A stretch of 64,000 nucleotides of DNA. It comes from Nitrospirales bacterium (GTDB lineage: Bacteria > Nitrospirota > Nitrospiria > Nitrospirales > NS-4). The stretch covers positions 1,046 to 65,045 of the forward strand of contig JAUSHW010000201.1 of the NCBI GenBank assembly GCA_030648395.1, given 5' to 3'. Below, one piece after another: positions 717-59,079 of the stretch; positions within the stretch are counted from its first letter, which is position 1, and every line of letters starts with the position of its first letter. The notes beneath the pieces are model-generated. The model saw nothing but the letters and a program-made list of their open reading frames with translations. It made no database searches and was not told the DNA's origin. The position numbers were made by a program, and so were the translations under genes.

Positions 717-1271
717 TTAGGCTCCTTTCGTGCTGGTTGCGGGGAAGATCAACGTCGTTCCATTCCAGGGTGCATTCGGCACGAATTCATTGACGAGGGT
801 ATTCAATTCATCCCGGTACGCGGCCCGCGCCCTGTTGTACGCGGTCCACGCCGGGTAACACGCCTTGCCGTACGCGGCCTCCGCCTCGTAGTACGCGGCC
901 CTCGCCTCGTCGTACGCGGCCCGCGCCGTGTTGTACGCGGCCCCCGCCTTGCCGTACGCGGCCCCCGCCTTGCCGTACGCGGCCCCCGCCTTGCCGTACG
1001 CGGCCCACGCCGTGCTGTACACGGCCAACGCCGTGTTGTACGCGGCCCACGCCGTGCTGTACGCGGAGGGAATGCGCGTCGTGGGCACGAGACAGATCGC
1101 CGCAAGACGGATGGCGCGCTCCTGCTTGGGCTTTTTTTTTCTGATATTGGCGATCCGTTCCTGGACGTTGGCGCTGTACTCGACGGGCTCGCCGGCGTGA
1201 TGCAGGAGCGTGAACCAGCCCGTGGAGGGGCCTTCGTACTTTGGTTTGCCTGGGTGTGTGAGATTCTTCAT
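717..1271 (-). CDS. AAY-heptad repeat protein, paralog 2
   Basis: Same N-domain, about 12 heptads and the same tail as paralog 1. Start placed at ATG 1271 (MKNLTHPG; AAGGA RBS; ATGA overlap with 1268..1477) rather than ORF-track 1304. Confidence 0.7.
   Translation of the reverse strand: MKNLTHPGKPKYEGPSTGWFTLLHHAGEPVEYSANVQERIANIRKKKPKQERAIRLAAICLVPTTRIPSAYSTAWAAYNTALAVYSTAWAAYGKAGAAYGKAGAAYGKAGAAYNTARAAYDEARAAYYEAEAAYGKACYPAWTAYNRARAAYRDELNTLVNEFVPNAPWNGTTLIFPATSTKGA
807..1067. repeat. 21-bp tandem repeat array inside 717..1271
   Basis: Same 21-bp unit family as 213..485, including three identical consecutive gccttgccgtacgcggccccc units. The number and order of units differ from paralog 1. 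Confidence 0.85.
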
Positions 1272-1477
1272 GAGGGTCGTCCTTTCTTTGGTTGTGTGGG
1301 GCACGGGCCCGCGCAGGCGGTCACCCGCGCGCGGCCCTCGAGCCGGCGCGTGAGACGGTCACGCATGGCGAGGGCGGTCGATTGTGAGGGATAGGTGCAC
1401 TGGTCCCCGAGGTGTGGGTCTAGCAGGCCGCTTAGGCAGAACGGCACGCGGTTGATTTTGATGTGCTGGGGTCTCAT
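1268..1477 (-). CDS. hypothetical protein (69 aa)
   Basis: Inner part of ORF 1268..1621 (MRPQHIKINRVPFCLSG...). ATGA overlaps at both ends (1474-1477 and 1268-1271) indicate translational coupling. Confidence 0.5.
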   Translation of the reverse strand: MRPQHIKINRVPFCLSGLLDPHLGDQCTYPSQSTALAMRDRLTRRLEGRARVTACAGPCPTQPKKGRPS

Positions 1478-1716: not shown

Positions 1717-2000
1717 CGGGGCACCTTGGCGAGAGCGGCGCGCGCTACCGTTCGAATGCGTAGCAATCGCTTATCGTTACCGCAGGCCGATGTGAGGCGG
1801 TTCCCGATGATGGTAAGCGCCGCCAGCAGCTCCGGCGCGTTGGTGATCAGCGCGCGCGCGGCCTTAATATCCTGTTCATTGTCTCGCGCGGCTTGGCGTT
1901 CTTCGGCGGTTGTGGCGCAGGCAAAGCGCTCTTGCGTGTCACAGTCCGCGAGGTCGAGAACGTTCTCCACTTGGCGTTGAATTTCTGATTGCTTTCTCAT
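1713..2000 (-). CDS. hypothetical protein (95 aa)
   Basis: ORF track. ATG 2000 preceded by GAAAGGA. Confidence 0.55.
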   Translation of the reverse strand: MRKQSEIQRQVENVLDLADCDTQERFACATTAEERQAARDNEQDIKAARALITNAPELLAALTIIGNRLTSACGNDKRLLRIRTVARAALAKVPR

Positions 2001-2054
2001 CTGATTCCTTTCGGCGCCCCGGCCCTTCCGAGCCGGAGCGCGCTGTCGTGGCCG

Positions 2055-2207
2055 CTAGGCCTCGGTCTCCTTGGTGGTAAAGTCTAGGTCAGGATTGGCC
2101 GTTTTGATGGCTTCGGCCGCCTTCGTGTCGCCGGCCGCGCAGGCGGCTGCGTGCTCACGCAGGACGGCGTCCTGTTGCTCCTTCCAACTGTAGCTGGCTC
2201 CTCGCAT
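2055..2207 (-). CDS. hypothetical small protein (50 aa)
   Basis: Below ORF-track cutoff. Hand translation: MRGASYSWKEQQDAVLREHAAACAAGDTKAAEAIKTANPDLDFTTKETEA. GAGGAGGTGA RBS about 8 nt upstream of ATG 2207. Confidence 0.5.
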   Translation of the reverse strand: MRGASYSWKEQQDAVLREHAAACAAGDTKAAEAIKTANPDLDFTTKETEA

Positions 2208-2281
2208 AGTAGAAATCACCTCCTCTCGGTTAAATTCAAGACAACCCGTGAGCCCCTCCGAGCTCGCGAGCTGGTTTGAGT

Positions 2282-2494
2282 TTACCCTTTGATCTTGCCG
2301 CCCGAGGGGCCGCAGTCGCCCCTGATATAGCCGATGAACGCTTCTCGGTTGAAGGCTTCGCTCTGCTCCTGGCAGAAGTCCGCGAGCACGTCGATTAAGA
2401 AGGGCGGTTTATTTTCGAGCTCGCCGTTGCGGTACTTCGTGAGCTGATAGACCCGCACCTTGTCTGCTAGCGCGATGAAGTGTTTTCTGGTCAT
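2282..2494 (-). CDS. hypothetical protein (70 aa)
   Basis: C-terminal part of ORF 2282..2875 from MTRKHFIALADK. ATGA overlap with the stop of 2491..2778. The upstream part of that ORF looks non-coding in this frame. Confidence 0.6.
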   Translation of the reverse strand: MTRKHFIALADKVRVYQLTKYRNGELENKPPFLIDVLADFCQEQSEAFNREAFIGYIRGDCGPSGGKIKG

Positions 2495-2778
2495 GCTGGT
2501 TTTCCTTTCGTGTACTCGGTCACAAAAACTTGAAATTGACCGACCCCGGTTATCGCGTAATAGCAGCCGGCCTTGAGTCTGGCAAGGAACGCGGGAATGG
2601 TCAGGGCGGCCTCGCCCGGCGCCCCGAGCCCGGAGGAGTCTACAAAATAGATTTGGGTTTTTGTAAACCCTTTCGGGTGTTCCATGTCCGACCGGTCGGG
2701 GAACGGTAACAAAGGTTCGGACTTCCACTTGAGTAAGTCCGCCTCGGTCACCTTGTATGGAAGTCTTGGCTTGCTCAT
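2491..2778 (-). CDS. hypothetical protein (95 aa)
   Basis: ORF 2491..2844 trimmed to MSKPRLPYKV (ATG 2778, GGGGGTGGGAG RBS). ATGA overlaps on both sides. Confidence 0.6.
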   Translation of the reverse strand: MSKPRLPYKVTEADLLKWKSEPLLPFPDRSDMEHPKGFTKTQIYFVDSSGLGAPGEAALTIPAFLARLKAGCYYAITGVGQFQVFVTEYTKGKPA

Positions 2779-2969
2779 ACTCCCACCCCCTTTGCATGGC
2801 AGAGGCCTTGCTCGATGAGCGCCGAGGCAGTCCGTCCGAACCATCCCTGAAGACTCCAGGCAAGGCCGGTGTCAATCAGGTATTGCCACGCTTCGATCTG
2901 CTCCTCGCGGCTGGCGTTCTCGCCGCCACAGAAGCCCTCTGCAATTGAAACCGCTGTGAAGTGATCCAT
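2775..2969 (-). CDS. hypothetical protein (64 aa), first gene behind promoter/leader copy 1
   Basis: ORF track. ATG 2969 lies 9 nt after the AAGGAGG contributed by the 118-bp repeat. Confidence 0.6.
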   Translation of the reverse strand: MDHFTAVSIAEGFCGGENASREEQIEAWQYLIDTGLAWSLQGWFGRTASALIEQGLCHAKGVGV

Positions 2970-2978
2970 TGTGCTAGT

Positions 2979-3096
2979 CCTCCTTGGTTGTAGCCGGTGC
3001 CGCTTCCGCCGCGCCGGCCGTGTGGTTTATCAATCCTGCATACCTATAACTGAGTCACTCAGCTATTGTCAAGAGAATTCGAAAATAATTCTCCCT
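2979..3096 (-). promoter_or_regulatory. 118-bp promoter/operator/leader element, copy 1
   Basis: Identical to 4782..4899. On the minus strand: TTGACA (3072..3067), 18-nt spacer holding the perfect palindrome CTGAGTGACTCAG (3050..3062), TATAGG (3048..3043), ~55-nt leader, then AAGGAGG RBS. Confidence 0.65.
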
Positions 3097-3222
3097 TGCC
3101 CCCCAAGTGGTCGCACGTTTAATCGCCCGCTGGCCCTCATGTAACCGCGCTATAGCGTATCGCTGTAAGTGTGCTTGTGTAGCTTTGTCCATCGTTCGCC
3201 CCCTCGGTTCGTTGCGTGTCAT
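3055..3222 (-). CDS. hypothetical small protein with MTRNEP N-terminus (55 aa; alternative start 3192)
   Basis: ORF 3055..3249. ATG 3222 sits 5 nt after the upstream TAA. A second in-frame ATG at 3192 follows GAGGGGG. The 3' end runs into promoter copy 1, so coding status is uncertain. Confidence 0.35.
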   Translation of the reverse strand: MTRNEPRGRTMDKATQAHLQRYAIARLHEGQRAIKRATTWGARENYFRILLTIAE

Positions 3223-3227
3223 GCTGG

Positions 3228-3449
3228 TTACCACTGCCCAAACGTACACACTGGGCCGCGATCGCCATCAAGATGCCGCCGCGAGCGGAAGTGTGCGCTG
3301 ATCTGCTCGGATGTAGTTGTGCTCACAGCGCGATACCACCCTTGTCTCGGCGTACCACCGGCGGCAAGTTGCTGGCAACGCGGGCACGTTAGATCGTACC
3401 GCTTAAACACCCTCTTACAATCATCCGTATGTGTCACTTTGGTTTCCAT
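3228..3449 (-). CDS. hypothetical Cys-containing protein (73 aa)
   Basis: ORF 3228..3512 trimmed to METKVTHTDDCKRVFKRYDLTCPRCQQL (ATG 3449, GAGAGGGGGA RBS inside the repeat element). Confidence 0.55.
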   Translation of the reverse strand: METKVTHTDDCKRVFKRYDLTCPRCQQLAAGGTPRQGWYRAVSTTTSEQISAHFRSRRHLDGDRGPVCTFGQW

Positions 3450-3454
3450 GGTCT

Positions 3455-3531
3455 GCGTCCCCCTCTCGTGCGCCCGTGGCCTAGCCCCTTGTACTGCCCC
3501 CTGTACCACCAAGGGGCAGGGAAGAGGTTAG
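3455..3531 (-). repeat. intercistronic cassette, copy 1 (RBS box + alternative hairpins)
   Basis: gcgtccccctctcgtgcgcccgtggcctag + ccccttgtactgccccctgtaccaccaaggggcagggaaga. The two halves recur at 3892..3921 and 4004..4060. It spans from one gene's stop codon to the next gene's RBS. Confidence 0.8.
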
Positions 3532-3890
3532 CGTAGATAGTTCCATCGCTTTCCGTGAAGCGTCTCCGCGTTGACCGTGAGCACGTTGCCGAGATCGGCC
3601 TTTTTCTTCTTGTTGTAGTCCGGTCGCCCGTAGCCTGAGATATTGAACAATTCACCGTTGACGACATCCACAAGGAACGCGCCGGAGTTCCCACAATCGA
3701 GCGCATGAAACTTTCGCCGCTCGCTGGCGTGCCAGAAGTCTGCGGTATGTGTAAAGCCCTGCTCAGCGTGGCTGATTTTCTCGATGGTGTTAAGGCAGTC
3801 AATCACCCTACCAACTGCTTCATTCACTGTGGCCCGCGTGATTTCGATTGTGCTGTCCATGGTGCCCTCCGTTGGTTCGTTGCGTGTCAT
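3528..3890 (-). CDS. hypothetical protein with MTRNEPTEG N-terminus (120 aa; alternative start 3860)
   Basis: ORF track. ATG 3890 lies 5 nt after GAGAGGGGGA. A second in-frame ATG at 3860 follows GGAGGG. Confidence 0.6.
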   Translation of the reverse strand: MTRNEPTEGTMDSTIEITRATVNEAVGRVIDCLNTIEKISHAEQGFTHTADFWHASERRKFHALDCGNSGAFLVDVVNGELFNISGYGRPDYNKKKKADLGNVLTVNAETLHGKRWNYLR

Positions 3891-3891
3891 C

Positions 3892-4060
3892 GCGTCCCCC
3901 TCTCGTTCGCCCGTGGCCTAGTTTGCTAATTACGCGGGTAAAGGGGAAGGCGCTCTCCCCGTGAGCCTCTAGCGCTCTGCCTAGACATATCGCTTCACCC
4001 CGCCGTGGTCTAGCCCCTTGTACTGCCCCCTGTACCACCAAGGGGCAGGGAAGATGTTAG
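3892..4060 (-). repeat. intercistronic cassette, copy 2, split by an 82-bp insert
   Basis: The same two halves as 3455..3531, separated by 3922..4003. The insert is bracketed by cgtggcctag (3912..3921) and cgtggtctag (4004..4013). Confidence 0.75.
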
Positions 4061-4317
4061 ATTTCTGGTCCTTCGATGAAGTCGCCGTTCTGCAATCGAA
4101 CGATATATTCCCCACTGTCAATGTCCTGTTCAAGCGAACAGGCTTTTCCATCTGCAAATTCACGAATAGAGACTTCCCTGCCAAGGTACTGCTTAGCCAA
4201 CCACATAGGCTTGAGTGATACCGTGTGAGGCTCAATTGTGATAGTGTCCACAAAGAACGGTATGCTTCGTGTGCTTCGTCCCATTTTAATTCCCTCCGTT
4301 GGTTCATTGCGGGTCAT
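4057..4317 (-). CDS. hypothetical protein with MTRNEPTEG N-terminus (86 aa; alternative start 4284)
   Basis: ORF 4057..4359. ATG 4317 lies 5 nt after the upstream TAA (TAAccaccATG). In-frame ATG 4284 follows GGAGGG. Confidence 0.55.
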   Translation of the reverse strand: MTRNEPTEGIKMGRSTRSIPFFVDTITIEPHTVSLKPMWLAKQYLGREVSIREFADGKACSLEQDIDSGEYIVRLQNGDFIEGPEI

Positions 4318-4322
4318 GGTGG

Positions 4323-4544
4323 TTAGATGCCGTGGCTGATTGGGAAACATTCGGGACATTCAGGACATTTGCCGCCGCGATCTTCATAGCCTTCATGCTT
4401 CCCGCCGTTGTCGCTATGTTCGTTGACTAAGCCGCCGACATCGTAGCAATGAGCGCAGAGGCCGATATGCTCATTGTCGCCGCGCCCTGTCGAACGAGTG
4501 AGCTTGTTACAATTGCGGCACTTGTAGCAGCCTGAACCAGCCAT
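4323..4544 (-). CDS. hypothetical multi-Cys zinc-binding-like protein (73 aa)
   Basis: ORF 4323..4724 trimmed to MAGSGCYKCRNC...CAHC...CPECPEC. The start is uncertain (alternative 4580). Overlaps the 3' end of 4507..4773. Confidence 0.45.
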   Translation of the reverse strand: MAGSGCYKCRNCNKLTRSTGRGDNEHIGLCAHCYDVGGLVNEHSDNGGKHEGYEDRGGKCPECPECFPISHGI

Positions 4545-4773
4545 TGACGAGTTCGCACTGTCCGCATGGAAGAGGATCATCTGGTGAGTTGAAATGCCAC
4601 GCTGCATGCCCCGCACTTTCAGTATATTCCAAGATAGAAGCCAATCGCTTGATCGTTTCGACTGGCACGGACACTTCAATGGTTTGCGTACCCTTGCCGT
4701 GCTTCTTTTCGGCCTTAAATCCAAATCTGTAGCCGCCGAATCCTACTACTGATCTACACGTTAAATACGTCAT
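4507..4773 (-). CDS. hypothetical protein (88 aa), first gene behind promoter/leader copy 2
   Basis: ORF 4507..4836 trimmed to MTYLTCRSVVGF. ATG 4773 lies downstream of the repeat-borne AAGGAGG. Confidence 0.6.
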   Translation of the reverse strand: MTYLTCRSVVGFGGYRFGFKAEKKHGKGTQTIEVSVPVETIKRLASILEYTESAGHAAWHFNSPDDPLPCGQCELVNGWFRLLQVPQL

Positions 4774-4781
4774 GTTCGCGC

Positions 4782-4899
4782 CCTCCTTGGTTGTAGCCGG
4801 TGCCGCTTCCGCCGCGCCGGCCGTGTGGTTTATCAATCCTGCATACCTATAACTGAGTCACTCAGCTATTGTCAAGAGAATTCGAAAATAATTCTCCCT
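4782..4899 (-). promoter_or_regulatory. 118-bp promoter/operator/leader element, copy 2
   Basis: Identical by eye to 2979..3096 (offset 1803 bp). TTGACA at 4875..4870, palindrome at 4853..4865, TATAGG at 4851..4846. It sits in the divergent gap between the leftward and rightward blocks. Confidence 0.65.
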
Positions 4900-4973
4900 C
4901 CCGGGGATTTTCACGTCCTGATAGAATAAGAGTTGAATCGCACGTAACCGTTTACTTATCGGAGGTGATGAAC

Positions 4974-5255
4974 ATGGTCCCACAGATGGATGAAGACACA
5001 GAACAGCCCGATCTGAGTGCGGGGTATTGCGTGGAGCTGTACGTGAATGCCGACGGCACGTTCACGGTGAGCGGCCCGAAGCCCCATGAGGCCGAGGCCG
5101 TTGAGGGCGAGACGGAGGCCGCAGGCGGTGCGCCGCTGCCTACGATCGCGGCGGCGCTGAAGGCGATCATGCAGATGGTCCAGGACAACCCCATCGGGCA
5201 GAGCGCGCAGGCGGGCTTCGAGGCCGGCTTCTCGTCCGGCCCAAATCGTGCCTAA
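4974..5255 (+). CDS. hypothetical acidic protein (93 aa)
   Basis: ORF 4869..5255 trimmed to ATG 4974, 8 nt after GGAGG (4961..4965). Confidence 0.6.
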   Translation: MVPQMDEDTEQPDLSAGYCVELYVNADGTFTVSGPKPHEAEAVEGETEAAGGAPLPTIAAALKAIMQMVQDNPIGQSAQAGFEAGFSSGPNRA

Positions 5256-5267
5256 GGAGGAACACGT

Positions 5268-5516
5268 ATGACGACCGCGCATTTGAATTTTGAAGTCAGC
5301 GACGATGGGCTGGTCAATGTGATGGAAGTCTACGAGGGGGGCTTCTCGTTGGAGAACCCGGCGCACTGCTTCGCGCGGGCCTTGATGAAGCACGCGCCCG
5401 AGGTCGGCGCCGATCAGGCCGGCGAGCCGCTGATCGTGGAGACGGCGCGCGCCATTGAGGTGGATGCCCACCCGATTCTGATCCCGGGCTGCGGCCCGGT
5501 GCATGAGGCCTCGTGA
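5268..5516 (+). CDS. hypothetical protein (82 aa)
   Basis: ORF track. TAAGGAGG RBS. Confidence 0.6.
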   Translation: MTTAHLNFEVSDDGLVNVMEVYEGGFSLENPAHCFARALMKHAPEVGADQAGEPLIVETARAIEVDAHPILIPGCGPVHEAS

Positions 5517-5764
5517 GGACCACGCTCGAGCTCACCCCCACCGCGGAGCTCATCGAGGAGCTCGCCAAGCGGTTCGATGTCCTCGTCTTCAATGCCATGA
5601 ATCGCCGGACGATGGAGACGGACGCGGGCCCGATCTCGTCCGTCCGCGCGTGGCGGCTCAAGGGCGATGTCGATCTGTGCGTGAGCCTGTCGGCCGTCAT
5701 CCATGATATGGCGCTCGAGGGCCTCCGGCGTCAGAGCACCGAACTGGACCCGGGCGAGCTGTGA
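5513..5764 (+). CDS. hypothetical protein (83 aa)
   Basis: ORF track. GTGA start-stop overlap. Confidence 0.55.
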   Translation: MRTTLELTPTAELIEELAKRFDVLVFNAMNRRTMETDAGPISSVRAWRLKGDVDLCVSLSAVIHDMALEGLRRQSTELDPGEL

Positions 5765-6318
5765 TCATCCTGACAGCCAAGCGCGAGGCCTTCTGTCTCC
5801 TCCTGGTCGCCGGGAAGACGCTCAATGAGGCCTACCGTCAGAGCCGGCCGGCCGGGGTCATGAATGACCAGACCGCGCAACAGCGCGCGAAGGAGCTGCT
5901 CCGCAATCCCCAGATACTCCGACGGATCGCTGAAATCCGATTGCCGGCCGTGCAGGCCTTCCGCAAGACGTACGAGTACAAGCTCGAGCATGCCCTCGCC
6001 GAGTGTAACGAGGCCCACGCTCTGGCTATGTCATTAGGCCAGCCCAGCGTCATGGTCACTGCCATTCAACTCAAGGCCAAGCTGGCTGGTCTGATTGTCG
6101 ATAAGAAGGAAGAGCGCCACGGGCTACTGGACGACGTGACGACGCGTGATCTCTTACGCATGCGCGCCGAGCTGAAGGCGCGCGAGGCCGTGGTTCGGAA
6201 TGAGGTGATCGACATGGTGGAGGATTCCTCAGAAAAAACAGTTAGGGAATCGGACCGAGGGGGCGTGGCCCGCTTTTCGCTGCCAGCGATGGGGCCCACC
6301 GTGCTGGACAGGTCCTGA
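5761..6318 (+). CDS. terS: terminase small subunit (Terminase_2/P27-like HTH)
   Basis: 185 aa. N-terminus LTAKREAFCLLLVAGKTLNEAYRQS...AQQRAKELLRNPQILRRIAEI follows the LTxKQxxF..Y...A...A.RLL.NP.V...I pattern of small terminases. Same operon as terL. Confidence 0.7.
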   Translation: MIILTAKREAFCLLLVAGKTLNEAYRQSRPAGVMNDQTAQQRAKELLRNPQILRRIAEIRLPAVQAFRKTYEYKLEHALAECNEAHALAMSLGQPSVMVTAIQLKAKLAGLIVDKKEERHGLLDDVTTRDLLRMRAELKAREAVVRNEVIDMVEDSSEKTVRESDRGGVARFSLPAMGPTVLDRS

Positions 6319-7982: not shown

Positions 7983-8231
7983 ATGCCTGAGTCACGCGAA
8001 TGCGGCTGCCCGTATCCCGGGCCCCATACCGCGCACTGCCTGGCGCCGCTGGACGGCTGCCGGCCGCGCGGGGGTGATCCCGCGCACGACCATACGTGGA
8101 TTCAAGTACGCGCCGGTGGCTGGCTGATGAAGGCGGTCTGCACGTGCAAGACGATCCGGCGATTCGTCCTCCAGGACTTCAACCGCGAACTCGCGCTCGG
8201 GAAGATGACCCTCCTGCCGAGGCGGGCGTGA
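7983..8231 (+). CDS. hypothetical Cys/His-rich protein (82 aa)
   Basis: ORF track. GGAGGATTAGTAG-ATG RBS. Its stop overlaps the proposed GTG start of terL. Confidence 0.5.
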   Translation: MPESRECGCPYPGPHTAHCLAPLDGCRPRGGDPAHDHTWIQVRAGGWLMKAVCTCKTIRRFVLQDFNRELALGKMTLLPRRA

Positions 8232-9718
8232 CGCCCGATCTGGACCCCGCCCACGGGAACGCCGCCCTCGCGGCCCTCATCGAGAAGCTCCTCGCCCAGC
8301 GGGCCCTTGAATTTTATCAGCCCTATCCGAAACAGAAAGAATTTCATCGCCTCGGGACCACGATCGACGAGCGCCTGCTGATGGCAGCCAATCAAGTGGG
8401 CAAGACCGTCTGTGCCTCGCGCGAGACCGCCTACCACGCCACCGGGAGGTACCCCGACTGGTGGGAGGGCCAGCGCTGGACGCGGCGGACCGTCGGCTGG
8501 ACCGGCTCACCAACCGGGCAGACCTCGCGTGACACGGTGCAGCGCCTGCTCCTCGGACGGACGGAGGATGGCTGGGGGACGGGGGCCATTCCGGAGGCCG
8601 ATATTTTTGACATCAAGCGCGCCAGTGGGAGTGTCCCGAACCAGGTCGAGAGTATTATCGTGAAGTCGGTCTTCGGCGGCGTCTCGACGATTACGCTCAA
8701 GACCTACGACCAGGGCCGCCTCCGGTGGCAGGGGGAGAGCATCGACTACGTCTGGTACGACGAGGAGCCGCCGGAGGATATCTACAGCGAGGGGAAGACG
8801 CGCACGCAGGCCTCCAAGCCACGGGGGACGTTTGTCTACATGACCTTTACGCCCCTGTTGGGCATGACGAGCGTCGTCAACCGGCTGACGAAGGAGAAGC
8901 CCGCGCGCACGCAGGTCATCGGCATGACGATCCACGACGCGCAGCACTACACGGACGAGGAACGCGCGCGGATTATCGCCGGCTATCTGCCGCACGAACG
9001 CGAGGCGCGGGCACTCGGTATTCCCGTGCTCGGCTCCGGCCGGGTGTTCACGATCCCGGAGGAGGAGCTCCGCTGCGAGCCGGTTGCCATTCCGGCGTTC
9101 TGGTATCGAATCAACGGGATGGACTTCGGCTGGGACCATCCGACGGCGAACGCCTGGCTCGCGTGGGACAAGGACAACGACATCATCTACGTCTATGCGG
9201 TTCATCGCCAGCGGGAGACGACCCCGTTGGTGTATGCCGCGGCGATCAAGGCCCGCGGGCCCTGGATCCCGGTGGCGTGGCCGCATGACGGCCTGCAGCA
9301 CGATAAAGGCAGCGGCGTCCAGCTTGCCCAGCAGTACAAGGCCCAGGGTGTGAATATGCTGAAGATGCGCGCGACGCATCCGCCCCTGCCGGGGAAGGAA
9401 GAGGGGAGCGGGGGATTCGGTGTCGAGGCGGGTATCCAGGACATGATCGACCGGATGCAGACCGGCCGCTGGAAGGTGTTCCGGACGTGTGCCGATTGGT
9501 TTGACGAGTATCGCATGTATCATCGGAAGGACGGCCTAATTGTGAAGGAGGGGGATGACCTCATGGCCGCCTCTCGGATCGGGAACATGATGAAACGCTT
9601 CGCGAAAGTAGCCCCCGCACCAGCGCGGCCGGCGGCCCCGCGATTTGTGGTCACGGATCCTTCAATGGGTGTCTTAGGCTCCTTGGCACTGATGATGCTC
9701 GCGGGATTATTTCTATGA
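8228..9718 (+). CDS. terL: terminase large subunit
   Basis: ORF 8096..9718. Start moved to GTG 8228 (GTGA overlap). Walker A AANQVGKT, an acidic WYDEEP stretch that could serve as Walker B, then a nuclease-half pattern (GMDFGWDHP...). Typical length. Confidence 0.9.
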   Translation: MTPDLDPAHGNAALAALIEKLLAQRALEFYQPYPKQKEFHRLGTTIDERLLMAANQVGKTVCASRETAYHATGRYPDWWEGQRWTRRTVGWTGSPTGQTSRDTVQRLLLGRTEDGWGTGAIPEADIFDIKRASGSVPNQVESIIVKSVFGGVSTITLKTYDQGRLRWQGESIDYVWYDEEPPEDIYSEGKTRTQASKPRGTFVYMTFTPLLGMTSVVNRLTKEKPARTQVIGMTIHDAQHYTDEERARIIAGYLPHEREARALGIPVLGSGRVFTIPEEELRCEPVAIPAFWYRINGMDFGWDHPTANAWLAWDKDNDIIYVYAVHRQRETTPLVYAAAIKARGPWIPVAWPHDGLQHDKGSGVQLAQQYKAQGVNMLKMRATHPPLPGKEEGSGGFGVEAGIQDMIDRMQTGRWKVFRTCADWFDEYRMYHRKDGLIVKEGDDLMAASRIGNMMKRFAKVAPAPARPAAPRFVVTDPSMGVLGSLALMMLAGLFL

Positions 9719-14114: not shown

Positions 14115-17036
14115 ATGGCGAGTACACCAGCAATTATCGTTGACGGCGCGACCAACAGCGTCAAAGGGCAGCCGGGGTCCAGCGACGCCGGCGGCGCGGT
14201 CGTTCTTGCAGGCGGGCTCGGGGCCTCCACCTATGCGGGTGGACTGGTTTCCCTGACCGGCGGCGCGGGCACCACAACTGGGGCCGGCGGGGCTGCCAGT
14301 GTGGTCGGCGGCGCGGGCGGGGATGACGCCGTCGGCGGCACGCTGACCCTCACGGCCGGCGCGGCCGGCGGGGGCAATCGTGCGGGAGGGGCGACCACGA
14401 TCGCGGGCGGAGCCGGTAGCGGCACCGGTGCGGGTGGCGCGGCCACGCTCACCGGTGGAGCCAGCGGAACGGGCGCCACGGGCGCGGGCGGTGCCGCAAC
14501 GGTGACGGGCGGCGCGGCCAGTTCGACGAACAATGTGGGCGGCGTGGCCTCGGTCGTCGGCGGCGCGGGAAACGGAACGGGCAACGGTGCTGCGGCGAAG
14601 CTGACCGGCGGCGTCGGCGGAGCCACCTCTGGCGTCGGCGGCGCGTGCACGATCAAGGGCGGCGCGGGCGGAAGCTCGGCGGGAGCGGGCGGCGCGGTGA
14701 CGCTGGACGGTGGCGGGGCCACGGCCGCGGCCACGGCCGGCGGAGCAATTACGATCACAGGCGGATTGTCGACGACCTCTGCCGCGGGCGGCGCGGTGAC
14801 GCTCGTCGGCGGCGGTGTCGGGACGACCGGAATTGGCGGACTGGTCTCCATCACGGGTGGCGTCGGTGGGACGTCGGGTGCGCGTGACGGCGGTGCGGTC
14901 TCGCTGATCGGCGGCGCCACGGGCGCGGCCAGCACGGGCGTCGGCGGCGTGGTCACGATCACCGGCGGTGCGAGCACGGCCGGCGGGGCCAGCGGAGCGG
15001 GCGGTGCGGTCGCCATTACGGGCGGCGCGGCCGGGACGACGAACGCAGCCGGCGGGGCGGCCAGCCTCATTGGCGGTGCGGGATCCGGAACGGGGAACGG
15101 CGGAGCGGTCACGTCCACGGGTGGACTCGGCGGGGCGACCTCCGGAGTCGGCGGGGCCCTGGTCTTCACGGGCGGCGCGGGGGGATCCTCGGCCGGCGCG
15201 GGCGGCGCGGTTTCGCTGATCGGTGGGGCGGCTACGGCCGGCGCCACGGCGGGCGGCGCGGCAAATTTGAAGGGCGGCGCGAGCACAGGATCTGGAACCG
15301 GCGGACTGGTCACCATCACCGGCGGCGCGGGGAGCGCGGCCACGGGTGTCGGCGGCGGGGTCACCGGAGCGGGCGGACTCGGAAATACGACCGGCGCTGG
15401 TGGGGCGGTCTCCTGGACGGGCGGCGCGGGCGGCACGGATGCCGTCGGCGGGACGGCCAGTCTGATCGGCGGCGCGGCCGGCGGTGGAAACCGTGCAGGC
15501 GGTGCAGCCGCTCTGACGGGCGGCGCGGGTGCGGGGACCTCCGACGGCGGAGCCTCCACGGTCACCGGCGGCGCGGGTGGGGCGACCTCCGGTATCGGTG
15601 GGGCGGCCTCCATCGTGGGCGGTGTGGGCGGAACGTCGGCCGGTGCGGGCGGGGCGGCTCTCGTCACGGGCGGCGCGGCCACGGGTGCGGCCACAGCCGG
15701 CGGGGCGGTCACGATCGCGGGCGGACTCTCGACGACCTCTGCGGCAGGTGGTGCGATTACGATCACGGGCGGCGGCGTCGGGACGACCGGAGTCGGCGGA
15801 TCGGTGGCGGTTGCCGGTGGCGTGGGCGGCACCTCGGGTGCGAGGAACGGCGGTGCCGTCTCGGTGATCGGCGGCGCAGGTGGCGCGGCGGGTATCGGAG
15901 ACGGTGGGATTGCCACCTTCAAGGGTGGTGCGAGCGGAACGGGTGCCACGGGCGCGGGCGGTGCGTTAGCCATCACGGGCGGTGCCGCGGCCTCGACGGA
16001 CGGTGCCGGTGGTGCGGGCGTCATCGCGGGCGGCGCGGGCGCGGGCACGGGCGCCGGTGGACTGGTCTCCCTGACGGGCGGCGCGTCCGGTGCGGGCGCG
16101 ACGGGCAACGGTGGCGCCGCAACGTTGAAGGGGGGAGCCTCTCTGTCAACGGCTGGCGACGGTGGGGCGGTGAGCGTGACCGGCGGCCTGGGCACGACGA
16201 CCGGAGCGGGCGGGGCCATCACGGTGACGTCTGGCGCGGGCGGGACGTCCGGTCTGAGCGGCGCGGTGACGATTGCGAGCGGCGCGGGTGGGACGACCTC
16301 GGCGTCGGGTACGCTGACGATTCGCACGGGTGCCGTCACGGCGACGGCCGGTGCGGCTTCCGGAGCCATGACCATTGAAACCTCTGCCGGGGCAACCGGA
16401 GCAACCTCAACGAACGGCGGCGCCTCGGGTGCGATGACCTTACAGACGTTGGCCGGCGGGACGACGGGGACGGGGACCGGCGGCGCGGGCGGACTCATTT
16501 CAATCCTGACGGGCGTCGGCGGTTTGACGACGGGCGTGGGAACCGCGGGCGGAGCCGGCGGTGGCCTGACCGTGACGACGGGCAACGGTGGCGCGGGCTC
16601 AACCCCGACCACGGGCGGTGTGGGCGGCGCGATTGCCGTGACGGCCGGGAACGGTGGCAACGGGACCACGGGCGGTGTGGGCGGCGCGATTGCGCTCGTG
16701 GCCGGTAATGCCGGAACGGGCGGGAACGTCAACGGGGCGAACATCGACCTGACGCCCGGGACGCTGACGGGGACGGCCTTGAACGGGCATGTGCGGATTG
16801 CACCGGCCACGGCGACGCCGGCCAACGGCGTCTCATCCGGGACGATTGCGAGCAAGGTCGGTCTTCTGTTCGGGAGCACGGCCGGATTCGGCATCTACAT
16901 CGGATCGAGCACGCCGTCTCTGACGGCGGCCCAGGGCTCGTTGTATCTGCGGAGTGACGGCTCGAGCACGAGCACGCGGGCGTACATCAATACGGACGGC
17001 GGGACGACCTGGACGGCCGTGACGACCGCCGCATAA
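14115..17036 (+). CDS. Gly/Ala/Thr-rich repetitive fibre protein (973 aa)
   Basis: ORF track. CAGGAGG RBS. Dozens of GGxGG / (T/S)(L/I)(T/I)GG units with long-range internal duplications. C-terminus GSLYLRSDGSSTSTRAYINTDGGTTWTAV resembles fibre-tip motifs. Confidence 0.8.
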   Translation: MASTPAIIVDGATNSVKGQPGSSDAGGAVVLAGGLGASTYAGGLVSLTGGAGTTTGAGGAASVVGGAGGDDAVGGTLTLTAGAAGGGNRAGGATTIAGGAGSGTGAGGAATLTGGASGTGATGAGGAATVTGGAASSTNNVGGVASVVGGAGNGTGNGAAAKLTGGVGGATSGVGGACTIKGGAGGSSAGAGGAVTLDGGGATAAATAGGAITITGGLSTTSAAGGAVTLVGGGVGTTGIGGLVSITGGVGGTSGARDGGAVSLIGGATGAASTGVGGVVTITGGASTAGGASGAGGAVAITGGAAGTTNAAGGAASLIGGAGSGTGNGGAVTSTGGLGGATSGVGGALVFTGGAGGSSAGAGGAVSLIGGAATAGATAGGAANLKGGASTGSGTGGLVTITGGAGSAATGVGGGVTGAGGLGNTTGAGGAVSWTGGAGGTDAVGGTASLIGGAAGGGNRAGGAAALTGGAGAGTSDGGASTVTGGAGGATSGIGGAASIVGGVGGTSAGAGGAALVTGGAATGAATAGGAVTIAGGLSTTSAAGGAITITGGGVGTTGVGGSVAVAGGVGGTSGARNGGAVSVIGGAGGAAGIGDGGIATFKGGASGTGATGAGGALAITGGAAASTDGAGGAGVIAGGAGAGTGAGGLVSLTGGASGAGATGNGGAATLKGGASLSTAGDGGAVSVTGGLGTTTGAGGAITVTSGAGGTSGLSGAVTIASGAGGTTSASGTLTIRTGAVTATAGAASGAMTIETSAGATGATSTNGGASGAMTLQTLAGGTTGTGTGGAGGLISILTGVGGLTTGVGTAGGAGGGLTVTTGNGGAGSTPTTGGVGGAIAVTAGNGGNGTTGGVGGAIALVAGNAGTGGNVNGANIDLTPGTLTGTALNGHVRIAPATATPANGVSSGTIASKVGLLFGSTAGFGIYIGSSTPSLTAAQGSLYLRSDGSSTSTRAYINTDGGTTWTAVTTAA

Positions 17037-17044
17037 GGGGAAGA

Positions 17045-19504
17045 ATGGCCGGAGTCGCAGAACTTCCTCCTGAGATTCAAGAAGCCCTCCAGGACCGCCA
17101 GGTGTTCAGCCAGGCGGTCCTGGATCAGCTTGCGACCGTCCTCGAGGAGAAGCTGAAGAAGGCGGTCACGGATCGGAAGACCAAGGGGATCGAAGCCACA
17201 TGGACGATGGCCGAGGAATCCTACTGCGGGATTGACGAGGCCAACCGCCATGAGTTTAACGAGGGGACGTGGATTAAACCCCTCACGATTAACGCCCCTG
17301 TGCAGACGACCTCCCGCAAGGGAGACCCGAGCGAGAATCCGAAGTCGACCGCCTTCGTGCGGCTCACGAGCCGGTATGTAGACGCCGGGGCGGCAAAAAT
17401 TGGTGAAGTGATCCTCTCCCCGACGGACAAGGCTTTCAATATCAAGCCGATGCCGATGGAGGAACTCGTCGAGGGGATGAAGGATACGAGTCCGGTCCTG
17501 CAGGAAGGTCAGACGCTTCAACGGAACGCTAAGCCGGAAGAGATCCAACCCGGCGAGCAGGGTGCCAACGGGCTCCCGCCTGGGCGTGATCTCCTGACGA
17601 AGGACCTCGCGGAGGAGGCGATCACTCTTCGCGCAAAGTCGGCCGAGAAGGCGGAGACGCGTATCTATAGCTGGCTCACACGCGCCGGCTATACGCGCGA
17701 GATGCGGAAGGTTATCTTTGACGCGGCGCGGATTGGGGTCGGCATCCTGAAGGGCCCCTTCCCCGAGAAGATCCGGGTCATGGCCGTCAAGAAAAATAAG
17801 ACCGACGGGCGCATTGGTCTGATCATCGAGGAGAAGATCGTCCCGACCTGCCGGTGGGTGAACCCCTGGTTCATCTATCCCGATCCGGCGTGTGGGGAGG
17901 ATCTGCATAGCGCGGATTATATTTTTGAGCGCGACGGGCTCTCCCCGAAACAGGTGCGAAAGTTGAAGGGTCTCCCCGGCTACTTGGATCACGAAATTGA
18001 CGCCGTACTCGAGAAGGGCCCCGATAAAACTCGGATTGATTCGCGCGCACCGAACGAGAAGAAGAACGAGGACCAGTTCGAGGCCTGGTACTACTACGGC
18101 CGGATCCCGCGGTCGGCCCTCGAGGCTGGGAATGCCGAGGCGGCCAAACCGATTCCGGCAGACAGGAAATTCGTCGACGCGATCGTGACGATGATCAACG
18201 GGCGACCCATTAAGGTCGTCCTGCAGACGCTGGACTCCGGCGAGGGGATCTATCACTCGGTCCCCTGGATGCGACGGACGGGCTACTGGGCCGGGATCGG
18301 CGTTGCCGAGCAGGTGCAGATGCCCCAGCGGATGATCAACGCCGCCACGCGCGCGATGCTGAATAACGCGGGCGTCTCCGGTGGGCCACAGATTGTCATT
18401 GACCAGGGGGCGATCACGCCCGTCAACGGGCAGTGGTATCTGACGTCCGGGAAGCTCTGGTACAAGTCGACGGAGGGCACGACGGACGACGTCAACAAGG
18501 CCTTCCAGACGTACGACATTCCGAACGTCGTCGACCCGATGATGAAGATCATCAACTACGCCCTCCGATTGGCGGAGGAGTCCACGAGTATCCCGCTGAT
18601 TACCCAGGGGCAGTCGGGGAAGACGACGCCGGAGACGTTCGGGGCGACCCAGCTCCAGAACAACAACGCGAACCAGTTGCTCCGGAGTATTGGTTACTCG
18701 TTCGACGACCATATCACGGAGCCGTTCATTCATCGGTGCTACGAGTGGCTGCTGCTCGATCCGGACGTCCCGGAGGACGAGAAGCAGGAGTTCCTCATTG
18801 ACGCCCACGGGTCGAGTGCCATGGTCGAGCGGGCGATTCAGGATCAGACGATTACGCAGATGTTTCCCGAGCTGCTCGCGAACGCGGGCGCCTTCGGGAT
18901 CAATCCGAAGCGGCTCTTCGCGCAGCTCTGGAAGATGCGCCACCTCGACCCGGCGGAGGTCCAGAATACGCCCGAGGAGCAGCAGAAGATTGACAGCCAA
19001 CAGCCGCCGCCTCCGCCCGCGGTCCAGGTGGCGATGATCAAGGCTCAGACGGCGGAGAAGACCCTCCAGGCGCAGGCGACGCGCGGGCAGGAGGAGGACG
19101 CCCTCGTGCGTGAGATCGAGCAGCTCGACTCGCAGGTCAAGATTGAGATCGAGACGATTCGCGCGCGGACGCAGGAACTGAAGAGCAAGCTCGACACGGA
19201 CCGGGACACGGTCTACGTCGAGGCGGAGACCACGAAGGCCCAGGCGGTCTTCTCTCAGAAGATGGAAGAGCTCCGACTCAAGAAGGAGCTCGCCATCATG
19301 CAGTACGCGAACGAGCACCAGGTCACGATGGAGGGTGTCAAAGCGAAACTGGCCGAGACCGCGATGAAGCTCAAGGTCGAGAAGGAACTCAATGCGGCGG
19401 CGCTGGGGGCGGATCTGCATAAGCATCACACCCCCTCGGCCGACAAGCCACCCGTCCAGGTGGCCGGGAAGGCGCCCAATGGCCGGGCGATGGCACAGGC
19501 ATGA
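17045..19504 (+). CDS. portal protein (putative, N4-size class)
   Basis: 819 aa. Sits directly upstream of a small ORF, an acidic scaffold-like ORF and the capsid gene (portal-scaffold-capsid synteny). C-terminal Gln/Glu coiled coil. No motif-level proof. Confidence 0.7.
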   Translation: MAGVAELPPEIQEALQDRQVFSQAVLDQLATVLEEKLKKAVTDRKTKGIEATWTMAEESYCGIDEANRHEFNEGTWIKPLTINAPVQTTSRKGDPSENPKSTAFVRLTSRYVDAGAAKIGEVILSPTDKAFNIKPMPMEELVEGMKDTSPVLQEGQTLQRNAKPEEIQPGEQGANGLPPGRDLLTKDLAEEAITLRAKSAEKAETRIYSWLTRAGYTREMRKVIFDAARIGVGILKGPFPEKIRVMAVKKNKTDGRIGLIIEEKIVPTCRWVNPWFIYPDPACGEDLHSADYIFERDGLSPKQVRKLKGLPGYLDHEIDAVLEKGPDKTRIDSRAPNEKKNEDQFEAWYYYGRIPRSALEAGNAEAAKPIPADRKFVDAIVTMINGRPIKVVLQTLDSGEGIYHSVPWMRRTGYWAGIGVAEQVQMPQRMINAATRAMLNNAGVSGGPQIVIDQGAITPVNGQWYLTSGKLWYKSTEGTTDDVNKAFQTYDIPNVVDPMMKIINYALRLAEESTSIPLITQGQSGKTTPETFGATQLQNNNANQLLRSIGYSFDDHITEPFIHRCYEWLLLDPDVPEDEKQEFLIDAHGSSAMVERAIQDQTITQMFPELLANAGAFGINPKRLFAQLWKMRHLDPAEVQNTPEEQQKIDSQQPPPPPAVQVAMIKAQTAEKTLQAQATRGQEEDALVREIEQLDSQVKIEIETIRARTQELKSKLDTDRDTVYVEAETTKAQAVFSQKMEELRLKKELAIMQYANEHQVTMEGVKAKLAETAMKLKVEKELNAAALGADLHKHHTPSADKPPVQVAGKAPNGRAMAQA

Positions 19505-20699: not shown

Positions 20700-21779
20700 A
20701 TGGCAACGGGAACACAGACGTATGGGCTCAGCACCCAGCGTGTCGGAAAATACAAGGGCGAGATTCTGGCCCACGCCGTCCCGGTGGAGGTGCTCGGGCG
20801 CGAAGGGCGTCAGGTTCGGATGCCGAAGAACAACAGCGACACATACGTCGCGCGGCGCTTCCTGCCGTACGGCGCGAGCTCCACGAGTGCGAGCACGATC
20901 AATCGCTTCTTCTCGGATGGGACCGGTGATCGCGGCAACGTGATCGTGCAGGCCCATCAGACGCAGGAGGGGATCACGAACGCGCCCGAGACGATCACGC
21001 CCATGGACGTGACGGTCGTGATCGTGCAGTATTCCTGCCTGTACGCCTTCACGGACAAGACGTTCGACCTCTACGAGGACGACATCCCGAAGGAGATGAT
21101 CAAGCAGGTCGGCGAGCGGGTGACGCTGGTCAACGAACTGATCGTCTACGGGGTGCTGAAGGCCTGCACGAACGCCTACTATGGCGGAACGGGCACGACG
21201 ATCGCGACGGTCAACGGCGGCCTGACGCTGGGATTGCTGCGGAAGATCACGAAGGGTCTCCAGGCGAACCACGCCAAGCCGGTCAACAAGATGCTCGGCG
21301 CGGGCGGGGACTACGGCACGGACGCCGTGGAGCAGGGGTACACGATCTACTGCCACACGGATCTGGAGCCGGACATCCGGGATCTCCCGGGGTTCACGCC
21401 GACGGTGAAGTACGCCAGCGGCAAGCCGATGAGCGAGTACGAGGTCGGGAAGGTGGAGCGGATGCGCTTCGTGACCTCCCCGGATCTGCCGTCCATTCAG
21501 GACGGGGGTGCGGCCATCGGGAGCACGAACCTGTACTCGACGTCGGATACGTCCTTGGACGTCTATCCCTTCGTCGTCGTGGCGCAGGATGCCTGGAGCC
21601 AGATTGCGGTCCGTGGGATGGAGTCCCTGGATCCGACCTATCTGGCCCCCGGGCAGAAGAGCAAGTCCGATCCGCATGGACAGCGCGGGTACGCCGGCAC
21701 CATCTGGTGGAAGGCGGCGCTCGTGGAGAATCACGGCTGGATGGCGGTCGGCCACGTCGGCGTGAAGAACCTGGTCTGA
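20700..21779 (+). CDS. major capsid protein (HK97-fold, N4 gp56-like by recall)
   Basis: 359 aa. AAAGGAG RBS. Position after the scaffold-like gene. The C-terminal pattern GQRGYAGTIWWKAALVENHGWMAV recalls the N4-gp56 capsid family. Confidence 0.85.
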   Translation: MATGTQTYGLSTQRVGKYKGEILAHAVPVEVLGREGRQVRMPKNNSDTYVARRFLPYGASSTSASTINRFFSDGTGDRGNVIVQAHQTQEGITNAPETITPMDVTVVIVQYSCLYAFTDKTFDLYEDDIPKEMIKQVGERVTLVNELIVYGVLKACTNAYYGGTGTTIATVNGGLTLGLLRKITKGLQANHAKPVNKMLGAGGDYGTDAVEQGYTIYCHTDLEPDIRDLPGFTPTVKYASGKPMSEYEVGKVERMRFVTSPDLPSIQDGGAAIGSTNLYSTSDTSLDVYPFVVVAQDAWSQIAVRGMESLDPTYLAPGQKSKSDPHGQRGYAGTIWWKAALVENHGWMAVGHVGVKNLV

Positions 21780-57960: not shown

Positions 57961-58155
57961 ATGCACCTCTCCAAACGCAAGATGCTCGGACTGCGGCGGC
58001 TCCGTCGACTCCAGGCCGCTACCGCCATCCTGAGTGCTATGGTTGCTTCGGCGCCAATGTGTGATAGGACTGCTGTAAATAAAGACGCGTGGGCGGGAGT
58101 TGCTTTAGACTTTGCCGACGCCCTTATTATGCGCGTGAAGAAGGAGCCCGCTTGA
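57961..58155 (+). CDS. small protein with signal-peptide-like N-terminus (64 aa)
   Basis: ORF 57922..58155 trimmed to MHLSKRKMLGLRRLRRLQAATAILSAMVASA. Confidence 0.4.
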   Translation: MHLSKRKMLGLRRLRRLQAATAILSAMVASAPMCDRTAVNKDAWAGVALDFADALIMRVKKEPA

Positions 58156-58691
58156 TGATTCGCCCCATCCTCACCGACGGCCATCCACTCTTGCGGAAAG
58201 TCGCACCGCCCGTCAATCTTCTGGAGATCCCCGGGCCGATGATCCAGGGCTTGCTCCGCGACATGATGGAAACCATGCACGCCGCGCACGGCATTGGCCT
58301 CGCGGCGCCGCAGATCGGTTCCCCGCTGCGGCTGGTTGTCATGGGGAACGTAAAGGCCGACGGCGGGGCGCGAGGCTTTCCCGCTCGGGTGCTGATCAAT
58401 CCGGTGCTCCTCTCTCAGACCACGACGATTCTCCAGACCAACCGAGAGGGCTGCCTCTCGGTGCCCGGGTGGTGCGGGGACGTGGCCCGCCCGCTTGGTC
58501 TTGAGGTCCAGTATCTCGATGAGAAGGGGGCCACGCAGCGCGTCAAAATGAATGGCCTCGAGGCGGCCTGCCTGCTGCACGAGGCCGATCACCTCGATGG
58601 GATTCTTTTTATTGATAAGCTCGAGGGGGAGAAGATCGCCCAGCCGCGCCTCGTCGCGCGGCCTGAGTTCGAGAGACCGGAGGGCCAATGA
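58155..58691 (+). CDS. def: peptide deformylase
   Basis: ORF 58089..58691 trimmed to MIRPIL (AAGGAG RBS, TGATG overlap). All three PDF motifs are present: GIGLAAPQIG, EGCLSVPG, HEADHLDG. Confidence 0.9.
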   Translation: MIRPILTDGHPLLRKVAPPVNLLEIPGPMIQGLLRDMMETMHAAHGIGLAAPQIGSPLRLVVMGNVKADGGARGFPARVLINPVLLSQTTTILQTNREGCLSVPGWCGDVARPLGLEVQYLDEKGATQRVKMNGLEAACLLHEADHLDGILFIDKLEGEKIAQPRLVARPEFERPEGQ

Positions 58692-58855
58692 GACATTTTA
58701 AACTGACGCTCCGAAAGGCACTGGATTACATTGAAGAGGCCGTGAACGAGGTCCGCGAGCCACACCAGAAGAGCGCGGAGGAGGTGGATCGCGCCCTGCA
58801 ACGGCTCGACGGATGGATTGCTGGCGTCAGAGATGGCATGCGAGGGCGCGGATGA
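58688..58855 (+). CDS. hypothetical helical mini-protein (55 aa)
   Basis: Hand translation: MRHFKLTLRKALDYIEEAVNEVREPHQKSAEEVDRALQRLDGWIAGVRDGMRGRG. ATGA overlaps at both ends. Confidence 0.5.
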   Translation: MRHFKLTLRKALDYIEEAVNEVREPHQKSAEEVDRALQRLDGWIAGVRDGMRGRG

Positions 58856-59079
58856 GCCGCTCACGGAAACTCACCCTCGGGGCCTACGCCCTGCTCCGGC
58901 GGGGGAATCTGGCCCGCCTCGCACGGGCCCTGGATCTTCCCCCGTCCGTTGTCTCAGCCTGGGCTCATCGGCGCCGGCCGGTCCCGGTGCGGCACTGTCT
59001 CGCGATTGAGCAGCAGACGGCCGGGCTCGTTCGCGCGGAGACGCTCCGGCCGGACGTCTCGTGGCGGAGGACGGCCTGA
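58852..59079 (+). CDS. Cro/YdaS-like HTH DNA-binding protein (75 aa)
   Basis: ORF 58813..59079 trimmed to MSRSRKL. LARALDLPPSVVSAWAHRRRPVPVRHCLAIEQQTAGLVRAETLRPD fits the YdaS/Cro pattern. Confidence 0.65.
   Translation: MSRSRKLTLGAYALLRRGNLARLARALDLPPSVVSAWAHRRRPVPVRHCLAIEQQTAGLVRAETLRPDVSWRRTA

Follow-up and report, generated by a model that had tools for sequence, protein, structure and literature searches.

A 118-bp module with the layout of a promoter, operator and leader occurs twice, in identical form, on either side of six small open reading frames (ORFs) in a tailed-phage genome on contig JAUSHW010000201.1 (assembly GCA_030648395.1, Nitrospirales bacterium). We analysed the 64,000 nucleotides from position 1,046 to 65,045 of this contig, which are called the window here and whose first letter is position 1. 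As a whole, the locus is best explained by recombination at the promoter and leader, so that the duplication probably marks the insertion of a gene cassette or, reciprocally, its deletion elsewhere. Positions 2979-3096 and 4782-4899 agree at 118 of 118 positions, which makes exact an identity that the initial annotation had noted by eye. The identity ends abruptly, with no extension on either side and with unrelated flanks. The two copies are direct and not inverted repeats. Leaving aside shorter repeats within the cassette between them, the window has no other long exact repeat in non-coding sequence. The parts of the locus are the following.

2979-3096, minus strand: copy A of the module (predicted promoter, dyad, leader and Shine-Dalgarno sequence)
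4782-4899, minus strand: copy B of the module, in the divergent region beside gpR1
3093-3073 (copy A) and 4896-4876 (copy B), minus strand: A/T-rich, UP-like region with the 7-bp inverted repeat GAGAATT-N7-AATTCTC, abutting the -35 hexamer
3072-3067 and 4875-4870, minus strand: -35 hexamer TTGACA
3046-3066 and 4849-4869, minus strand: operator-like dyad ATAGCTGAG-TGA-CTCAGTTAT, with 9-nt arms matching at 8 of 9 positions and overlapping the -10 hexamer
3062-3050 and 4865-4853, minus strand: dyad core CTGAGTGACTCAG, two 6-nt arms around one central base
3048-3043 and 4851-4846, minus strand: -10-like hexamer TATAGG
2992-3019 and 4795-4822, minus strand: leader RNA hairpin from fold prediction, with a GGAA (GNRA) tetraloop, 6 nt upstream of the Shine-Dalgarno sequence
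2985-2979 and 4788-4782, minus strand: Shine-Dalgarno sequence AAGGAGG, the last bases of the repeat, where the identity ends
3097-4781, minus strand: cassette of six small ORFs bounded by copies A and B, read here as probably inserted
4507-4773 (c1), 4323-4544 (c2), 4057-4317 (c3), 3528-3890 (c4), 3228-3449 (c5) and 3055-3222 (c6), minus strand: the cassette ORFs
2775-2969, minus strand: DUF7417 gene (Pfam PF24192, E = 3.6e-10), first gene of the conserved leftward block
4974-5255, plus strand: gpR1, first rightward gene (homologues P0001-P0005)

The spacer between TTGACA and TATAGG is 18 nt long and contains CTGAGTGACTCAG. Downstream of TATAGG follows a 63-nt stretch that holds the GC-rich hairpin with its GGAA loop and then AAGGAGG, which is separated from the start codon by 9 nt in copy A (ATG at 2969) and by 8 nt in copy B (ATG at 4773). 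From this layout, transcription is predicted to start near 3035-3037 and 4838-4840; the predicted promoter in copy A would drive the DUF7417 gene and the conserved leftward block behind it, and the one in copy B the cassette genes c1-c6. Both copies are likely to act as promoters, presumably with early timing. The A/T-rich region next to the -35 hexamer had been missed in the initial annotation. Its inverted repeat folds weakly (-7.5 kcal/mol, z -1.3), and relatives keep the A-rich character upstream of the -35 hexamer, not the inverted repeat.

Using gpR1 homologues and DNA pattern scans we found five related lineages, namely L082/L083/L084 (groundwater contigs of up to 65.6 kb), L093, L089, L088 and L001, which together with the window make six lineages; copy counts hold for the DNA that was fetched. 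Every relative has exactly one copy of the element, located between gpR1, which anchors the divergent region in all of them, and the first leftward gene. This comparison upheld the layout of promoter, dyad, leader and Shine-Dalgarno sequence that had been proposed from the window alone. TTGAC is invariant in the -35 hexamer of all six lineages (TTGAC(A/T)), as is TATA in the -10 hexamer, whose last two positions are GG, AA or CA (TATAGG in four lineages, TATAAA in L093, TATACA in L088). The spacing between the hexamers is 18 nt, with 17 nt in L001. The spacer sequence is identical to that of the window at 15 of 18 positions in L082, L089 and L088, and similar by eye, without a count, in L093; the central base of the dyad is free (G, A, A, T and C over the five lineages that have this spacer). 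The first 24 nt of the leader are identical to the window at only 7-11 positions (about 40%). Further downstream the leader hairpin is again conserved, with 22 of 26 positions identical in L082 and L089 in a gapped alignment and a GC-GGAA-GC core in all six lineages, including one compensatory pair. This pattern of conservation fits a promoter of the sigma-70 type in which the spacer would double as a binding site, with a functional structure in the leader behind it.

The cassette itself is absent from the relatives. A check for the loss of 3097-4781 in related phages, suggested in the initial annotation, gave this result in four of four relatives with DNA downstream of the leader; L001 is not among the four, since its DNA ends before the cassette position. 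Synteny with the window extends over most of L082 and L093, and the single promoter of each aligns to both copies in the window. In both, the left flank of the promoter matches the copy A side and runs on into the conserved leftward genes (in L082, the DUF7417 gene), and the right flank matches the copy B side and runs into gpR1 (L082 9816-9917 aligns to 4780-4883). Window positions 3097-4780 align to neither L082 nor L093, and the ORFs c1-c6 have no counterpart in L082, L083 or L084. The genes downstream of copy A do have counterparts in these three contigs (38-77% identity), with the DUF7417 protein at 77% identity to their first leftward gene product. Moreover, the gene that comes first behind this leader and Shine-Dalgarno sequence is not always the same: it may be the DUF7417 gene, c1 or, in L089 and L093, a third and unrelated gene (MSHEIYKEKF). 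The leader and Shine-Dalgarno sequence therefore represents a recurrent mosaic junction.

Beyond these lineages, GTDB genomes and JGI metagenomes gave no hit to a first DNA pattern in which the -10 context was obligatory, and a lineage-specific leader word found nothing in IMG/VR. Two pattern matches were dismissed as chance: one in a Pirellulales metagenome-assembled genome (MAG; L094) lies inside a conserved motif of a ComM/YifB-like gene, and one in IMG/VR (L081) has no -10 or leader similarity.

The GC content of the cassette is 54.6%, compared with 62.8% for the window. No homologue of c1 was found other than c1 itself, and members of the c4 family lie in unrelated clusters of small genes on other contigs, where neither this promoter nor the other cassette genes are present; the cassette genes are ORFans or members of families scattered among unrelated phage contigs. 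At the downstream end, c6 extends 42 nt into copy A, and its stop codon is the TGA inside the palindrome. The only terminator-like elements in the cassette are two 58-nt repeats (3474-3531 and 4003-4060), which fold into a 10-bp GC-rich hairpin without a U tract. These repeats are 97% identical and lie directly after the stop codons of c4 and c3. After each of them comes a repeated 30-nt block (3455-3484 and 3892-3921) with the ribosome-binding site of the next gene; at the second 58-nt copy, the 58-nt and the 30-nt blocks are separated by an insertion of about 80 nt, which CTAGNCCACGG flanks. The cassette therefore has its own reused junction sequences. A motif of about 26 nt, ATGAC(A/C)CGCAA(C/T)GAACC..GAGGG, precedes c6, c4 and c3 (3186-3222, 3854-3890 and 4281-4317, minus strand). 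It is in frame as MTRNEP(T/R)(E/G)G, 10-11 codons before a second ATG, at which the NCBI annotation starts c4 (110 aa), and it may encode an N-terminal peptide common to the three proteins or act as a recurring linker for translation initiation.

Taken together, the 118-bp unit may be viewed as a regulatory module that heads a leftward block of small, probably early, genes and that would comprise, in order, an A/T-rich upstream region, a sigma-70-type promoter, a dyad for protein binding, a leader with a GNRA hairpin and a strong Shine-Dalgarno sequence. A 1.7-kb cassette of foreign small genes would have entered at the resident module by recombination, bringing its own copy of the module with it. 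This could have happened by integration of a circle of module plus cassette into the resident module, or by unequal exchange between two phages that share the module and differ in the genes behind it. Conversely, an exchange between the two direct repeats would excise the cassette in circular form and bring back the layout of the relatives, so that an insertion here or a deletion elsewhere would account for the difference. Both copies would fire and answer to the same dyad-binding regulator. Copy B would transcribe c1-c6 and probably read on into the genes of copy A, because no strong terminator intervenes.

The earlier proposal of one regulator for two early operons has to be modified in this respect, since the two operons form one co-directional leftward block with the cassette at its head. 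Gene conversion or strong selection had been offered for the perfect identity of the copies. Gene conversion may indeed have contributed, whereas selection cannot hold 118 of 118 positions identical, because the 5' part of the leader drifts freely between lineages; with selection excluded, a recent duplication or insertion, or gene conversion, is required. It had also been suggested that the copies permit the cassette to be deleted or inverted. Since they are direct repeats, deletion, duplication or excision as a circle is possible, and inversion is not expected.

Several observations weigh against our interpretation or parts of it. Only two copies are present, and hence there is no sign of a genome-wide cassette system. 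TATAGG lacks the terminal T, so that a consensus promoter scan made no call, and none of the six lineages has a T at the last position of the -10 hexamer; with a non-consensus -10 hexamer and the rejection by the scan, the strength of the promoter and the sigma factor that reads it are uncertain. The 13-bp palindrome, described as perfect in the initial annotation, is so in the window phage only, whereas L082, L089, L093 and L088 have in common the imperfect right arm ACTCTG, and the spacer of L001 differs from the rest. No strong terminator was found between the cassette and copy A, and none after c6. Finally, the window derives from a short-read MAG contig.

This last point raises the possibility that two strain variants sharing the promoter were threaded in series through the common 118 bp during assembly. 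The source is a metagenome-assembled contig of 65,739 bp binned as Nitrospirales, strain-to-strain variation in the genes behind this leader is evident among the relatives, and Logan contigs built with k = 31 break at the repeat. The breaks themselves are informative, however. In this independent assembly of run SRR13727527, two contigs start exactly 30 nt (k-1) inside the copies, at 4870 in copy B (contig L087) and at 3008 in copy A. Such starts are the trace left in an assembly graph by a genuine repeat with two paths in and two out. A simple variant bubble rejoins downstream, whereas here the end of c6 joins the upstream end of the module, a junction that requires real reads; moreover, the repeat is shorter than a typical read and thus resolvable, and the c6 ORF reads smoothly into copy A. 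We regard an artefact as quite unlikely. Another explanation would treat the repeats as sites of site-specific recombination, similar to those of integron cassettes, with the dyad as recombinase site and the promoter as a secondary feature. Direct repeats with a dyad do flank a cassette of foreign ORFs, and the junction behind the leader has been reused by different genes across the lineages. This explanation appears very unlikely, given that no integrase or recombinase family was recognised among the window proteins scanned, that the single-copy relatives keep the whole promoter anatomy, and that an identity of 118 bp is typical of homologous exchange and not of a short core site.

The dyad in the spacer is the operator-like part of the module. 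A palindrome search of the whole window, allowing up to two mismatches, returned both copies and one near-match at 26955 (6 strand-hits against 1.03 expected, with 0 of 100 shuffles reaching 6). The search for further palindromes that the initial annotation had called for thus places the motif, outside coding sequence, only at the two promoter copies within the 64-kb window. As in a Cro-type operator, the dyad overlaps the core promoter and is under purifying selection (6+1+6, extending to 9+3+9). A dimeric protein bound there would occlude the -10 hexamer and so control both copies. The candidate for this role, and nothing more than a candidate, is the YdaS/Cro-like helix-turn-helix protein that the initial annotation had also pointed to:

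58852-59079, plus strand: YdaS/Cro-like helix-turn-helix protein (PF15943, E = 8e-15; 76% identity to its L082 orthologue)

Of the roughly 50 window proteins scanned, no other had a recognisable helix-turn-helix, and no other DNA-binding family was recognised. The second divergent region (57966-58089), upstream of the operon with the peptide deformylase and Cro-like genes, contains a single CTGAGTG half-site, which is not above chance.

The position of the dyad has also to be considered with an activator in mind. A MerR-type activator or a host global regulator might bind the dyad and remodel an over-long spacer and a weak -10 hexamer, which would be in line with the location of the dyad inside the 18-nt spacer, with a -10 hexamer that departs from consensus in all lineages, and with the fact that no classical cI-type repressor was recognised among the proteins scanned. 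MerR-type spacers measure 19-20 nt, compared with 18 nt here and 17 nt in L001; the centre of the dyad lies nearer to the -10 hexamer and the dyad overlaps it, fitting occlusion; and the proteins scanned include no member of the MerR family. Activation at the dyad is therefore judged unlikely. A different role for a palindrome is known from phage N4, where the P2 promoter forms a hairpin with a 5-bp stem and a 3-nt loop. By analogy, the palindrome here could be an N4-type hairpin promoter, read by a virion RNA polymerase residing in a giant protein of 3851 aa, with TTGACA and TATAGG being incidental. The capsid is distantly related to N4-like capsids, the giant protein is encoded in the structural block, CTGAG-TGA-CTCAG has the geometry of the N4 promoter, and the element heads an early-looking block. 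Against this, the giant protein carries polyvalent domains, has no sequence match in the PDB and gives no hit to an RNA polymerase family in Pfam, and a search with its first 2600 aa returned no N4-like phage. Moreover, the stem contains the same uncompensated T-T mismatch in L082, L089, L093 and L088 (CTGAG...CTCTG), so that the sequence is kept and not the pairing, while the -35 hexamer and TATA are invariant at the correct spacing and each relative has one copy. We consider an N4-type promoter extremely improbable. A T7-like promoter (GACTCA..TATAGG) was rejected as well, since the search for a phage RNA polymerase gave none and GTTATAGGT is confined to the two copies.

Around the dyad and the divergent region we noted some further sequence features. 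Half-sites of the type CTGAGT/ACTCAG, with a background rate of about 0.4 per kb, cluster 100-150 bp upstream of the -35 hexamer, within the first codons of gpR1, in every lineage (L089 360-400, L082 10000-10030, L088 385-400, window about 5010-5015). L089 has two 24-bp tandem units there, each with a near-copy of its own operator. The clusters may be auxiliary operator sites, or merely reflect a repeated (D/N)SVTQ coding motif. On the plus strand, the region of the window where the rightward promoter is expected (4900-4973) has TGATAGAAT, which is of the extended -10 type. At this position L082 (9930-9990), L089, L093 and L088 share instead the near-palindrome CTCTnAnGATATCnTnAGAG, part of which is present in the window in the opposite orientation.

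The leader hairpin is a further conserved element of the module. Its GC-GGAA-GC core, with a flanking G-G mismatch, recurs before the Shine-Dalgarno sequence in L088 and in the truncated leader of L001. An Rfam search of the leader returned nothing at E <= 1, and the hairpin core GCGGAAGCG has no additional copies beyond chance. A conserved leader hairpin with a GNRA-like loop is thus present, as in sites of the nut/boxB type, and, judged from sequence and predicted fold, it may act in the manner of a nut site, as an operator for translation or by stabilising the mRNA.

Among known systems, the promoter-early stem-loop (PeSL) cassettes of the T4-type phages RB49 and phi1 come closest to this locus (Arbiol et al., 2010, PMC2839356; Comeau et al., 2014, PMC4122927). 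PeSLs are composites of about 100 bp consisting of an early promoter, a stem-loop and a Shine-Dalgarno sequence; they flank ORFans and occur as a single copy at the same site in relatives, which has been shown experimentally (Arbiol et al., 2010). Recombination between PeSL copies deletes or inserts ORFans and forms mini-circles, with crossovers mapped between the -10 hexamer and the ATG (Arbiol et al., 2010). The locus described here appears to work like a PeSL, but outside that family. It shares with PeSLs a composite repeat of about 100 bp that reaches from upstream of a promoter, here a predicted sigma-70-like one, to the Shine-Dalgarno sequence, and the ORFans between two copies, with one copy and no 3097-4781 in L082 and L093. 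There are also differences. This phage falls outside the T4-type myoviruses and has a capsid with distant similarity to N4-like ones; PeSLs are present in many copies in hyperplastic regions, whereas there are two copies in the 64-kb window and one in the DNA of each relative; in place of the upstream terminator stem-loop of PeSLs there is a weak A/T-rich inverted repeat that the relatives do not conserve; and the operator-like dyad in the spacer and the conserved GNRA leader hairpin are undescribed for PeSLs. A more far-reaching proposal would be that the 118-bp unit belongs to an active, self-propagating cassette system outside the T4-type phages, in which mini-circles are excised and re-inserted at the module of related phages, the dyad and the CTGAGT half-site clusters 100-150 bp upstream serve as a shared site of control or recombination, and the GNRA hairpin acts as a nut-like site carrying transcription through the cassette hairpins. 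We mention this proposal as speculative and rather unlikely.

Comparisons with other systems concern single features. Like the morons of lambdoid and other temperate phages, the cassette is extra DNA of deviant GC content between elements that are adjacent in relatives, and it comes with its own copy of the predicted promoter. It differs from them in having six ORFs and no clear terminator. Its promoter also duplicates the resident one exactly, which indicates a homology-driven insertion. As at lambda OL/OR, and as for P22 Arc at Pant, the dyad is predicted to occupy the spacer and the -10 hexamer of an early promoter, and, as in lambda, a Cro/YdaS-like helix-turn-helix protein is encoded by the phage. 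In contrast to lambda, each promoter has one dyad and not a tripartite operator, a divergent cI-cro switch is missing, and the operon with the Cro-like gene does not have the site in its promoter region. The small leader hairpin with its GNRA-type loop resembles lambda nut/boxB in lying just downstream of a (here predicted) early promoter and in being conserved despite diverged flanks. Unlike boxB, it stands directly before the Shine-Dalgarno sequence, and control of translation or of mRNA stability is equally possible; no boxA, for which no search was made, and no N-like protein have been identified, the small ORFs being without family assignment.

Promoter duplication by cassette recombination is a known route of phage genome shuffling, and in this sense the finding is fairly ordinary. 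The locus constitutes a clean natural example of a conserved promoter and leader acting as a joint for the swapping of small early-gene blocks, a process for which the experimental documentation to date comes mainly from the PeSLs of T4-type phages. The module is also a compact unit of promoter, operator and leader, validated by comparison, for a host group without genetic tools (putatively the Nitrospirales). Its value is practical and confirmatory, and the understanding of phage regulation or evolution is left unchanged.

As for the phage itself, family searches of the window proteins identified the following genes, along with a DNA polymerase, a DUF2800 nuclease, an SNF2 helicase, a VapE primase, a peptide deformylase and the YdaS/Cro-like gene.

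8096-9718: large terminase
17045-19504: portal
20700-21779: major capsid protein

The capsid protein is only distantly akin to those of known phages: identity is 51% to a record of an uncultured member of the Caudoviricetes, about 32% to StenR_269, DES1 and Rollin and 22% to N4-like phages. A megablast search of window positions 2000-6000 against GenBank phages gave no match, and pattern scans of IMG/VR that fit both copies did not retrieve the sequence. Two cassette proteins have identical entries at NCBI, from the 65,739-bp contig of the Nitrospirales MAG. The phage belongs to an uncultivated groundwater lineage; its contig was binned with the Nitrospirales, which are its putative host.

Several further features of the genome may be recorded. 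The peptide deformylase gene (58089-58691, plus strand; PF01327, E = 2e-44) belongs to the same rightward block as the YdaS/Cro-like gene and lies two genes upstream of it, with a 55-aa ORF in between; the deformylase is kept in L082 and L093. The polyvalent protein of 3851 aa (33527-45082, plus strand) in the structural block has ART-PolyVal (ADP-ribosyltransferase), LPD38 and DUF7178 domains and one stretch that matches a PHROG annotated as endolysin, and it is probably injected together with the DNA. Tandem paralogues at 132-713 and 717-1304 (minus strand) contain long arrays of 7-residue AAYxxAx repeats with a period of 21 nt, and an orthologous array is present in L082 (6656-7148). Between the terminase region and the portal gene, an ORF of 973 aa (14115-17036, plus strand) lies in an island of 75% GC, consists of degenerate Gly/Ala-rich repeats and has no match in Pfam or PHROG. 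The large terminase of L082/L083 (L082 12759-15098) measures 779 aa compared with 540 aa in the window, and a block of about 860 nt (L082 12940-13804), which may be an intein or an inserted domain, is missing from the window gene. Finally, a 68-nt stretch in the capsid gene (21202-21269) is similar to 60955-61022, in a small ORF upstream of the primase gene, with 72% identity overall and 27 of the first 28 nt identical.

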